From positions 35,602 to 99,601 of the forward strand of contig CAMPYS010000001.1 of NCBI GenBank assembly GCA_946998295.1: a stretch of DNA of 64,000 nt, written 5' to 3'. Positions 5,640 through 18,627 of the stretch are shown piece after piece. This DNA is from an uncultured Prevotella sp. Its GTDB lineage: Bacteria; Bacteroidota; Bacteroidia; Bacteroidales; Bacteroidaceae. A program made the translations under genes and the position numbers. The notes below the pieces were generated by a model. It was not told the origin of the DNA and made no database searches. It saw nothing but the letters and a program-made list of their open reading frames with translations. Each line of letters starts with the position of its first letter. Within the stretch, counting starts at the first letter, position 1.

Positions 5640-5647
5640 TAACTTTG
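5640..5647 (+). promoter_or_regulatory. -7 promoter motif TAacTTTG (candidate promoter of the 5.7-18.6 kb operon)
   Basis: TAnnTTTG located 53 nt upstream of the ATG at 5700. It follows a terminator and precedes 9 tightly packed same-strand genes. Confidence 0.45.
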
Positions 5648-5699
5648 CAGCCATAATATACATATTAATAAATTTATAAAATAAAAATACAAAAGGATA

Positions 5700-6815
5700 A
5701 TGAAGAAATTTTATTTAAGTTTTATTATTTTTTCTCTTCTATGTGCATTTAATACAGCAAGTGCAATAGGTACAAGTATTATAAAAGTACGTACAAATAA
5801 TCCTACTGGTAAAGTCTTGCATATAAAAGCTTTAATTTATGGAGGAATAGATAATGAGGGAGACGAAATAGATGATGATCCAAAAGAAAATGTTAATATT
5901 TCTTTTGAAGGTGCAAATATTGTGCATTCCAAAAATCAAGATCTTTGGATAGAATTAAAATCTAAGGATTTTATAATAAAAGGAGATTTAAATTATTTAG
6001 ATCTAACTGCTTGTAATGTAGAAGGAACAGATTTAAGTCAGGCTACTCGCCTTCATGAAATACATTTAGATCAAAATCCAATTTCTACTTTCAATCCTTC
6101 TGAAGCACCTAAATTAACAGTTATTTGGTTGTCAGATTGTAAAAATATTAAAAAACTTAATTTAAAAGGTGCTAAATACTTAAAGGGAATATCTTTACAA
6201 AATACATCTATTGAAGAAATAGATTTTTCAGGCGCAGAACAGATAGAGAATCTATATTTGGGTGATAATCCGAAACTTAATACCATAGATTTAACAAATA
6301 TGATAAATTTAAGAGAATTGTTTGTAAATGGAAATAATATTAATAAACTTGATATTGCTAAGTGCACTTTGTTAGAACGATTAGAGTGCAGTAAAAACAA
6401 CTTATCTGAACTTGATTTATCAACCAACTTTAAATTAGAATTTATATCTTGTTGGGGAAATAAGATAAAGGGAAAATCTATGGATAAATTAATTTCATCA
6501 CTTTCTAAAAAAGAACCTGATGGTACAGAATATGAGTTATGTATTTACAATAAATATTATAAAAATGAAGGAAATATTTTGACAGAAGCCCAAGCAAAAG
6601 ATGTAAAAGCTCGTGGTTGGATACCTAAACAGGCAGAAGGAAATATGGATTTCTTTACTTGGGTAGAATTTAAAGGTGCATCAGATGGTATAAATACTAT
6701 CAAATTATCAAAAGATACAGATAATGGACAATGGTACGACTTATGTGGTCGTAAAATAGAAAAGCCAACCAATAGTGGTATATATATACATAATGGCAAA
6801 AAGATTTTCTTGTGA
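5700..6815 (+). CDS. leucine-rich-repeat (BspA-like) secreted protein with T9SS C-terminal sorting domain
   Basis: Signal peptide, then multiple LRR units (LNLKGAKYLKGISLQNTSIEEIDFSGAEQIENLYLGDNPKLNTIDLTNMINLRELFVNGNNINKLDIAKCTLLERLECSKNNLSELDLS). C-terminus WYDLCGRKIEKPTNSGIYIHNGKKIFL matches the type-A T9SS CTD pattern (YDLxGRxI...GIYIV...K). Confidence 0.6.
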   Translation: MKKFYLSFIIFSLLCAFNTASAIGTSIIKVRTNNPTGKVLHIKALIYGGIDNEGDEIDDDPKENVNISFEGANIVHSKNQDLWIELKSKDFIIKGDLNYLDLTACNVEGTDLSQATRLHEIHLDQNPISTFNPSEAPKLTVIWLSDCKNIKKLNLKGAKYLKGISLQNTSIEEIDFSGAEQIENLYLGDNPKLNTIDLTNMINLRELFVNGNNINKLDIAKCTLLERLECSKNNLSELDLSTNFKLEFISCWGNKIKGKSMDKLISSLSKKEPDGTEYELCIYNKYYKNEGNILTEAQAKDVKARGWIPKQAEGNMDFFTWVEFKGASDGINTIKLSKDTDNGQWYDLCGRKIEKPTNSGIYIHNGKKIFL

Positions 6816-17067: not shown

Positions 17068-18047
17068 AAATATATAATAAATTACAAACACAACAATTAA
17101 TTAATGAATTGGCAAATAAAGGAAAAGACTTTATTTTTGTCATAAGTTATGATATGAACAACAATATAATAGAAGAGACAAAAGATATTGATAATAATAG
17201 AATTATGATTCAATTGTCTGATTTCTCTAATGCACATAATATAAAACAAGAAACAAAAATAAAACCAATACTTACATTTGATAAACCTGATATAGATAAA
17301 TATAATAAAGCAATTAACTTTGTAAAAGATAATCAACAAAGAGGTAATAGCTACCTAACAAATTTAACATGGAAAATACCAATAGTTACTAATCTATCAT
17401 TGAAAGACTTATATATACAAGCAAAATCAAAATATAAAATATGGATAAGGGATAAATTTTTATGTTTTTCACCAGAAACTTTTATTCGTATAGAAAAAAA
17501 TATTATCTCGTCCTATCCTATGAAGGGTACTATAGATGCAACAAGTACTAATGCTTTGCAAAAGCTTATTAATAATCCGAAGGAGGCTGCAGAGCATGCA
17601 ACAATAGTCGATCTAATACGAAATGACTTAAGTATTGTTGCAAATGGGGTTAAAGTGGACAAATATAGATATGCTGATATTATAGAAACAGATAGAGGTA
17701 ACATTATACAGACAAGCTCTAAAATAACTGCAAATGTATTACCATATTATCAAAATCATATTGGAGAACTTATTTTCAAACTCCTACCAGCAGGATCTAT
17801 AACAGGGGCTCCAAAAACAAAAACTATAGAAATTATAAAACAAGCAGAAAATTATAATCGTAATTTTTATACTGGGATTATGGGAAGATGGGCGAATGCT
17901 AAACTTGATAGTGCTGTTATGATAAGATTTATAGATATTGAAGATAACCAACTATATTATAAAGCTGGAGGTGGAATAACAACACAAAGTAATAACGAAG
18001 ATGAATATAATGAAATAATAGAAAAAATATATGTGCCAGTTCATTGA
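17064..18047 (+). CDS. pabB: aminodeoxychorismate synthase component I (short-form PabB, chorismate-binding domain)
   Basis: C-terminal chorismate-binding motifs PAGSITGAPK...MIRFIDIEDNQLYYKAGGGI. Overlaps the M16 gene by 4 nt (ATGA). Confidence 0.65.
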   Translation: MKIYNKLQTQQLINELANKGKDFIFVISYDMNNNIIEETKDIDNNRIMIQLSDFSNAHNIKQETKIKPILTFDKPDIDKYNKAINFVKDNQQRGNSYLTNLTWKIPIVTNLSLKDLYIQAKSKYKIWIRDKFLCFSPETFIRIEKNIISSYPMKGTIDATSTNALQKLINNPKEAAEHATIVDLIRNDLSIVANGVKVDKYRYADIIETDRGNIIQTSSKITANVLPYYQNHIGELIFKLLPAGSITGAPKTKTIEIIKQAENYNRNFYTGIMGRWANAKLDSAVMIRFIDIEDNQLYYKAGGGITTQSNNEDEYNEIIEKIYVPVH

Positions 18048-18627
18048 AACAATAAAAGTAGTAGATGGTGAAGTAAAAAACATTAAAGAGCATATTGATC
18101 GTGTTAATTATACAAGATCACAAAATTGGGAAAAGTATAACAAAATTATAGATAATGATATTATAAAGCTAATAAATAAAAAAGAAGGAACTATAAAATT
18201 ACGCTTTACTTATGATAATATAAATATATATCAGCCGACATGTACACAATATCGACTTAAGCAGGTTAAACATATAAAACTTATTACAGATAATACAATA
18301 GAGTACGCATTTAAAAGTATTAATAGAGAATCTTTAAATAAATTAAAACTAAGAGTAAAGCAAGATGAAGAAGTTTTAATAGTAAAATGTAACCGCCTAA
18401 CAGATACTTCATACACAAATATAGCATTGTATGATGGTATAAAATGGGTAACGCCATCTATTCCACTTCTCAATGGGACTAAACGTCGACAATTAATAAA
18501 GCAGAGAAAATTAATAGAAGTGGATTTAACTCCAAAAGATATAGGAAAATATAAAGCTATATCACTTATAAACGCCATGATAGAGCTTGAAGAGCTAATT
18601 TTACCTATTACAGAAGTACGGTTGTAA
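18031..18627 (+). CDS. pabC: aminodeoxychorismate lyase-like (short Bacteroidetes PabC-type)
   Basis: Overlaps pabB by 17 nt. About 198 aa with N-terminus MCQFIETIKVVDGEV, reminiscent of Bacteroidetes short PabC homologs. The assignment is tentative. Confidence 0.4.
   Translation: MCQFIETIKVVDGEVKNIKEHIDRVNYTRSQNWEKYNKIIDNDIIKLINKKEGTIKLRFTYDNINIYQPTCTQYRLKQVKHIKLITDNTIEYAFKSINRESLNKLKLRVKQDEEVLIVKCNRLTDTSYTNIALYDGIKWVTPSIPLLNGTKRRQLIKQRKLIEVDLTPKDIGKYKAISLINAMIELEELILPITEVRL

Follow-up and report, generated by a model that had tools for sequence, protein, structure and literature searches.

We analysed a 64,000-nucleotide stretch of DNA from an uncultured Prevotella sp. (assembly GCA_946998295.1, contig CAMPYS010000001.1; hereafter the window), in which nine plus-strand open reading frames (ORFs) lie almost end to end, from a secreted leucine-rich repeat (LRR) protein and a TonB-dependent receptor, through an M16 protease, to pabB and pabC. 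A first-pass annotation had mapped these ORFs from the letters alone and read them as a single operon; its coordinates and the tight spacing were borne out, as were all of its domain proposals in hidden Markov model (HMM) searches of the nine ORFs with Pfam and NCBIfam. The functional unit is smaller than these nine genes: those at 5700–17067 make up a single outer-membrane module for nutrient uptake, and modules of this type are conserved across Bacteroidales. The features in this interval, with lengths in amino acids (aa), are as follows.

5700..6815, + strand: secreted LRR protein, 371 aa, with a signal peptidase I (SPI)-type signal peptide and the conserved C-terminal tail WYDLCGRKIEKPTNSGIYIHNGKKIFL (LRR_4, 1.1e-11)
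6819..9560, + strand: TonB-dependent receptor, 913 aa, TTG start (CarbopepD_reg_2, Plug and TonB_dep_Rec barrel by HMM)
9574..9957, + strand: small lipoprotein, 127 aa, with a lipobox; paralog of the DUF4876 N-terminal domain
9991..11436, + strand: PepSY_TM inner-membrane protein, 481 aa (PF03929, 3.9e-24, 86.4 bits against a cut-off of 28.8)
11452..12960, + strand: DUF6850 outer-membrane beta-barrel, 502 aa counted from ATG, with a TTG 3 nucleotides (nt) upstream (HMM, 4.6e-86)
12980..14242, + strand: DUF4876 lipoprotein, 420 aa (PF16215, 2.7e-52; lipobox ...ALYSC)
14248..17067, + strand: single-chain PqqL/FusC-type M16 zinc protease, 939 aa (Peptidase_M16 and M16_C by HMM)

A conserved triad of receptor, lipoprotein and barrel

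To place the module in a wider context, we fetched 80 species-representative loci with a DUF6850 alignment and mapped the window proteins onto them by tblastn and phmmer; the loci were ascertained via short peptide patterns, and their ORF maps were drawn from ATG starts only. Carriers include Prevotella, Hallella, Segatella, Alistipes, Odoribacter, Butyricimonas, Muribaculaceae, Barnesiella, Rikenella and one Flavobacterium. Conservation of the gene neighbourhood across Bacteroidetes genomes, which had been put forward as a check on the operon reading, holds for a core of three genes. DUF4876 adjoins DUF6850 in 80/80 loci, the receptor is adjacent in 72/80, which is every locus with a contig reaching far enough, and across the 80 species all three lie on the same strand and together wherever the contig permits. 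The majority order is receptor–DUF4876–DUF6850, followed by M16 in many loci, and a minority read receptor–small lipoprotein–DUF6850–DUF4876. The window-like order, found in L001–L014, is [LRR]–receptor–small lipoprotein–DUF6850–DUF4876–M16, with the LRR gene present in part of them.

In the receptor, a plug and a 22-strand barrel follow an N-terminal extension that is carboxypeptidase-regulatory-like. The protein falls outside the SusC/RagA family (TIGR04056, 59 bits against a cut-off of 368.25) and has no SusD neighbour. At positions 6813–6821 a single frame runs TGA TAA TTG across the end of the LRR gene and the beginning of the receptor gene, placing the receptor TTG directly after two stops, and the receptor of one same-species metagenome variant is annotated with a start six codons downstream.

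The second, plug-less barrel that had been proposed for the locus is confirmed by a confident AlphaFold2 model of the DUF6850 protein (pLDDT 92.4), with about 18 strands and an N-terminal helical segment, and by the absence of a Plug domain from its HMM search. Structure comparison gave generic barrels only and no specific fold relative of DUF6850. The barrel presumably contributes to the work of the module.

The two lipoproteins are paralogous, as first suggested. Aligned by hhalign, the 127-aa protein matches the N-terminal ~100 residues of DUF4876 proteins with a probability of 98.4% (E 9.9e-15), and the common homologous domain persists when signal peptides are removed (96%, E 4.2e-9). By sequence, this small lipoprotein amounts to the N-terminal domain of DUF4876 standing alone; it lies between receptor and DUF6850 in 18/80 genome loci. 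Acidic residues just past the lipidated Cys are consistent with surface export of Bacteroidota lipoproteins, and such residues follow the lipobox Cys in both the 420-aa (CTPDKDEFD) and the 127-aa protein (CTDKNEDYY). The module lipoproteins are presumably surface exposed.

A PqqL/FusC-type protease tightly linked to the triad

The M16 protease carries the zinc motif HFLEH (H74–H78, read from the translation). It aligns with PqqL over its full length (6ofs, 3.6e-64, residues 25–921) and with FusC through the N-terminal half (6b03, 8.5e-30), in agreement with its original description as PqqL/FusC-like. H74, E77, H78, E159 and E166 are invariant in an alignment of 25 module-linked homologs. An SPI-like signal peptide, together with the lack of a lipobox and of a C-terminal sorting tail, points to a protein that is probably periplasmic.

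Accessory genes were counted in the 46 loci with enough flank, and the resulting statistics carry no correction for phylogeny. M16 is present in 26 of these loci and a set comprising an ATP-binding cassette (ABC) ATPase, DUF4857 and PepSY_TM_like_2 in 10, and no locus has both. The ABC-type set, annotated with Pfam, also includes a 223-aa protein and a 198-aa lipoprotein. The alternation of M16 with the ABC/PepSY-like set suggests two fates for imported cargo.

For a reciprocal test of linkage, the M16 alignment was used to fetch 80 metagenome loci. Of the M16 relatives that share at least 45% identity with the window protein, 21 are linked to the module and none is unlinked, with 2 loci too short; among those 36–45% identical, 1 is linked and 20 are unlinked, with 33 too short to tell. 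The unlinked genes occupy another, conserved gene context. Together with the 26 M16 loci above, these counts indicate that the pairing of receptor and protease, first noticed in this single window, is conserved and not accidental.

In a rough, midpoint-rooted neighbour-joining (NJ) tree of M16 proteins, 64/64 linked proteins fall into two clades and 20/20 unlinked proteins into a third. One linked clade is Prevotellaceae, including the window; the other is Muribaculaceae/Barnesiella, ~30% identical to the window M16. The unlinked clade is sister to the Prevotellaceae clade, so linkage to the module either arose twice or was lost once, and its tightness within clades under either history argues for function. 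The closest solved structure, PDB 9ldy ('Peptidase, M16 family'), matches the window protein over its full length (6.7e-217) with the HFLEH site in common. Its N-terminal 300 residues are 59–61% identical to the module-unlinked clade and 52% to the window M16, and it belongs with the unlinked clade; we found no paper in the literature that describes it.

Proposed secreted binders and further architectures

M16 loci are also enriched in a secreted protein, which we propose to be a surface binder in the case of the LRR protein of the window. An LRR or F1 protein (described below) occurs in 23/26 M16 loci versus 4/20 M16-less loci. The first-pass annotation had placed at the head of the operon an LRR protein exported by the type IX secretion system (T9SS). 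Its place as a conserved, orthologous member in the closest relatives stands: the protein is 48% identical end to end with a Prevotella ihumii ortholog at the same position, and an ortholog lies 5′ of the receptor in 8/14 window-like genome loci and also in L088 and L089. T9SS sorting gains no HMM support, with no match of the whole protein to TIGR04183 or PF18962 Por_Secre_tail at E<=0.01, and none of the last 98–99 residues to T9SS sorting HMMs at E<=10.

In other loci the place of the LRR protein appears to be taken by F1, a family of ~590-aa proteins that have a signal peptide, a beta-propeller (SBBP) repeat and, at the C terminus, a DUF6383/T9SS-like tail. F1 genes were seen in L020 (11519–13300, + strand), L018, L070 and 31 other loci, mostly of M16 type, either between DUF6850 and M16 or divergent upstream of the receptor. 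LRR and F1 proteins have a common tail type, roughly ...YDLxGRRv.KP..GIYI.NGKKv.vK; the Muribaculaceae F1 tails pass DUF6383 and score 0.01–0.018 with Por_Secre_tail, under cut-off.

Three further arrangements were observed among the loci. In the ABC-type version, a ~198-aa lipoprotein family (for example L019:12426–13022, − strand, and L047:999–1595, + strand) always stands beside the PepSY_TM_like_2 gene; it has no Pfam or NCBIfam match and is Cys/His-rich (CTHICAHGG), and it may be a metal-binding partner. In the metagenome loci L099, L101, L107 and L109, M16 is divergent from a receptor–DUF4876 pair and DUF6850 was not detected nearby. These loci may represent a fourth architecture in which the DUF6850 barrel is dispensable or encoded elsewhere. 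A DUF4932 protein (~480 aa) lies directly 5′ of the receptor in the Rikenella/Millionella group (L059:3050–4498, + strand; L051, L060, L065) and is another lineage-specific add-on to the triad.

An inserted PepSY_TM gene and the limits of the module

PepSY-TM had been read as a partner of the receptor, and this part of the proposal did not hold beyond the source lineage: a full-length PepSY_TM gene lies inside the module in 0/160 other loci. The closest homologs sit in other contexts, that at 62% identity in a housekeeping context, that at 52% after a receptor–HmuY pair in P. jejuni, and that at 45% alone. Judged from these comparisons, the gene is a lineage-specific insertion into the operon. 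Elsewhere, the gene 5′ of PepSY_TM homologs encodes a membrane protein of ~290 aa that is conserved (L085:8138–9004 and L086:4968–5840, 79% identical to each other) and matches no Pfam family. This protein is absent from the window, so PepSY_TM moved into the operon without its usual partner. H10, H33, H200, H252 and H443 of PepSY_TM are invariant among 30 homologs, and five such histidines fit FoxB-type heme-dependent reductases; the protein is a putative ferric or heme-iron reductase.

The remaining features of the cluster and its 5′ flank are the following.

5509..5550, + strand: GC-rich hairpin GGGGATAGATT...AAATCTATCCCC with a T-run, read directly from the sequence
5640..5647, + strand: TAACTTTG, a Bacteroidota −7-type promoter motif, 52 nt 5′ of the LRR start codon
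17064..18047, + strand: pabB, the short form of aminodeoxychorismate synthase component I (NF005486, 426 bits; cut-off 275)
18031..18627, + strand: pabC-like class IV aminotransferase-fold protein, 198 aa (Aminotran_4 PF01063, 7e-12, 46 bits against 28.5)

From the LRR gene to M16, successive ORFs are separated by 3, 13, 33, 15, 19 and 5 nt; the last two junctions overlap, by 4 nt (M16/pabB) and by 17 nt (pabB/pabC). We infer that the module genes are co-transcribed. A translational fusion of pabB-pabC to the protease had also been claimed; there is none, since M16 and pabB are in different frames and meet only in a 4-nt ATGA overlap. The pabC candidate passes Pfam Aminotran_4 only; with every NCBIfam PabC model it stays under the cut-off. 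It is very improbable that all nine genes, pabB-pabC included, make up one functional unit in which the protease is coupled to folate/pABA synthesis. The ATGA overlap and an identical arrangement in four same-species samples speak for such a unit, but compact operons often have short overlaps, no fusion protein is made, and pabB and pabC adjoin the module in 0/160 loci of other species. We conclude that pabB-pabC are unrelated folate-pathway neighbours that abut the operon in the source species.

A terminator ahead of the operon had been noted and is seen as the hairpin with a T-run 3′ of the preceding gene. It is probably the terminator of this upstream M20-peptidase gene and the 5′ boundary of the unit, and it was missed by a consensus terminator scan, the sigma-70 promoter and terminator consensus being uninformative for Bacteroidota. 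The TAnnTTTG motif at 5640, by contrast, is not the single copy first described. There are 13 further plus-strand occurrences within the operon, and the 138 in the 64 kb compare with 108 expected, roughly the chance frequency; with the motif this frequent, TAACTTTG is only suggestive as the promoter of the operon. An Rfam scan of 4000–21000 gave sroH as its sole match, below threshold, and no riboswitch.

Another plus-strand ORF begins 41 nt past pabC, so that the transcription unit need not end at pabC. This ORF, of 410 aa at 18669–19901, has its own TAATTTTG at 18638 and is without a family match; a 1093-aa TMEM260-like protein follows at 20091–23372. Every gene in the first 24 kb of the window is on the plus strand, with a steadily positive GC skew. 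The source lineage is Prevotellaceae-like, has a low GC content (~30%) and occurs in several metagenome runs; no genome represents it closely. Module identity to the nearest genome relative, P. ihumii, is 48–78%, and at least four metagenome samples of the source species share the identical nine-gene order.

Relation to known uptake systems

The first-pass annotation had likened the locus to the Fus system of Pectobacterium (FusABCD) and to E. coli YddA-YddB-PqqL. Part of this parallel stands. In each case the gene for a TonB-dependent receptor goes together with that for an M16 protease of PqqL/FusC type, a single chain with a signal peptide. This coupling is scattered over lineages but tight wherever it occurs, and iron limitation is the likely context. 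The receptor part does not stand, the window receptor being no homolog of FusA or YddB. HMM searches of the nine ORFs gave no dedicated TonB (FusB) or ABC (FusD/YddA) domain, and the window module adds an obligatory DUF4876 lipoprotein, the DUF6850 barrel and an LRR or beta-propeller secreted protein. Protease-associated import was defined by Grinter et al. in 2019, whose survey covered FusA homologs in Proteobacteria only (PMC6793856). The module would work like Fus/Ydd-PqqL, yet it falls outside that family, since it lacks the FusA-type transporter by which the family is defined; it would be functionally analogous, with unrelated outer-membrane parts.

Another likeness is to the DUF4876-lidded non-SusC transporters BT1939/38, BT3633/32 and PG1020/19 of Bacteroides and Porphyromonas, in which a receptor and a DUF4876 lipoprotein are adjacent on the same strand and keep this proximity. 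Price and Arkin proposed DUF4876 proteins as lids of non-SusC transporters and showed this conserved proximity, with a predicted lid on the receptor that has an opening of ~20 Å and a B. fragilis homolog that is surface exposed (10.1101/2023.03.17.533168). These transporters are strongly induced by iron or heme starvation. Lewis and Gui reported that low iron raises PG1019-22 20–214-fold and BT3625-33 38–128-fold, the latter comprising a receptor, two DUF4876 proteins, PepSY-TM proteins, an ABC ATPase and DUF4857 (PMC10434189). The P. gingivalis DUF4876 gene is strongly hemin-responsive (PMC10470040); its expression also rises when a hemH mutant is cultured without heme, and PG1019/PG1020 still figured as an 'uncharacterised transport system' in 2026 (PMC13096392). 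In P. intermedia OMA14, the iron-induced loci PIOMA14_I_0804-08 (up 5–33-fold) and I_1877-79 (up 9–72-fold) are leads as possible counterparts of the module. The BT3625-33 gene set (DUF4857, ABC, PepSY-type) matches the M16-less version of the module. Published descriptions of the Bacteroides and Porphyromonas loci include no M16 protease and do not mention DUF6850, whereas the window version adds M16, the LRR protein, the small paralogous lipoprotein and a full-length PepSY_TM. The suggestion that the module is undescribed thus needs qualifying: the receptor/DUF4876 pair and its iron induction have been published (10.1101/2023.03.17.533168; PMC10434189), and our literature search found no paper tying an M16 protease or DUF6850 to a Bacteroidota module.

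XusABC, the xenosiderophore system of B. thetaiotaomicron, likewise joins a receptor, a surface lipoprotein and a PepSY-type inner-membrane protein and is iron-regulated. It differs in that its lipoprotein is DUF4374 rather than DUF4876 (a Pfam search for DUF4374, the XusB family, gave no match in any of the nine ORFs), in that it has neither DUF6850 nor a protease, and in that PepSY_TM is not among the conserved components of the module studied here.

Discussion

We interpret the module as an iron- or heme-starvation uptake system in which surface binders, a lidded TonB transporter and a periplasmic PqqL-type protease that digests a polypeptide cargo act together, a reading to which we give a probability of about 50%. 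The most likely role would be to obtain iron or heme from a small protein or peptide-bound source under iron limitation. Ligand would be captured at the cell surface by the secreted LRR protein and the DUF4876 and 127-aa lipoproteins; the non-SusC receptor with its lipoprotein lid and the always-associated DUF6850 barrel would carry it across the outer membrane; and the periplasmic M16 protease would degrade the polypeptide part of the cargo. In the source species only, the inner-membrane PepSY_TM protein would then reduce the released ferric or heme iron for uptake. By analogy with the related loci, the module in the source organism is presumably iron regulated, and its substrate would include a polypeptide.

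Several observations weigh against this interpretation. The receptor was rejected as a FusA/YddB relative by both sequence comparison and fold ranking, the B. thetaiotaomicron DUF4876 systems gave no phenotype in 519 fitness experiments (10.1101/2023.03.17.533168), and the published iron-induction data concern M16-less relatives in other species. A Fur box, proposed as a mark of iron control, was sought upstream at 5400–5720 and no site of at least 13/19 was found; the consensus used is proteobacterial, the Bacteroidota Fur site not being defined. The roughness of the M16 tree and the uncorrected accessory counts count on the same side, as do the M16-less versions, which pair the same triad with an ABC importer and so fit a small-molecule cargo.

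This last point leads to an alternative that we consider unlikely, although it deserves serious weight, in which the cargo is a small molecule (such as a metallophore, heme-like compound or other micronutrient) brought in by the triad, and M16 is an accessory or general periplasmic peptidase that, for example, clears a carrier peptide or matures a module component and does not process imported protein. The ABC ATPase, DUF4857 and PepSY_TM_like_2 found in 10/46 loci are a set typical of small-molecule import and reduction, and the known substrates of lidded non-SusC transporters are small (10.1101/2023.03.17.533168). However, the strict exclusivity of the M16 and ABC sets suggests alternative cargo fates and not a bystander protease, the M16 linkage is tight and specific to certain M16 clades, and a secreted binder of LRR or beta-propeller type is a further gain of M16 loci. 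Quite unlikely, in our view, is scavenging of peptide or protein for nitrogen or amino acids, independent of iron and resembling RagAB, with M16 trimming imported oligopeptides. M16 enzymes of the PqqL/FusC type generally cut short polypeptides, an M20 peptidase is among the upstream neighbours, no Fur-like box was seen upstream, and PepSY_TM, the sole direct hint of iron in the window, is not conserved in the module. Set against these points, related DUF4876/receptor loci are among the most iron- or heme-responsive in two species, PqqL and FusC, the closest characterised M16 relatives outside Bacteroidales, are iron-regulated (PMC6793856), and it is a PepSY_TM gene that was recruited into the operon in the source lineage.

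Beyond uptake of iron or heme from a polypeptide-bound source, a bolder form of our interpretation is offered tentatively, as one that we doubt more than we believe: Bacteroidales may have a protein-piracy machine of their own. A tail-anchored LRR or beta-propeller receptor would catch a host or microbial metalloprotein or peptide, the DUF4876-lidded transporter and DUF6850 would import it, and a specialised M16 clade would digest it in the periplasm. For the DUF6850 barrel two roles would then be conceivable, either as another conduit or as a partner on which the surface lipoproteins dock or assemble. M16 would have been recruited or retained in two clades, and the triad would switch between digestion in the periplasm and ABC import.

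How Bacteroidales of the gut, mouth and vagina acquire iron and heme is poorly understood, and DUF4876/receptor loci are among the most strongly iron-induced genes of P. gingivalis and B. thetaiotaomicron. The present analysis shows that a dedicated 18-strand barrel is a constant part of the outer-membrane triad, and that the triad comes in two exclusive versions, one of which is tied to a PqqL/FusC-type protease and a secreted binder. This yields a testable hypothesis, that polypeptide cargo is imported and proteolysed, and several cultured strains, among them P. ihumii, P. disiens, P. pallens and Hallella bergensis, carry the module. If the hypothesis is true, protease-associated import would reach beyond Proteobacteria, with different outer-membrane components.

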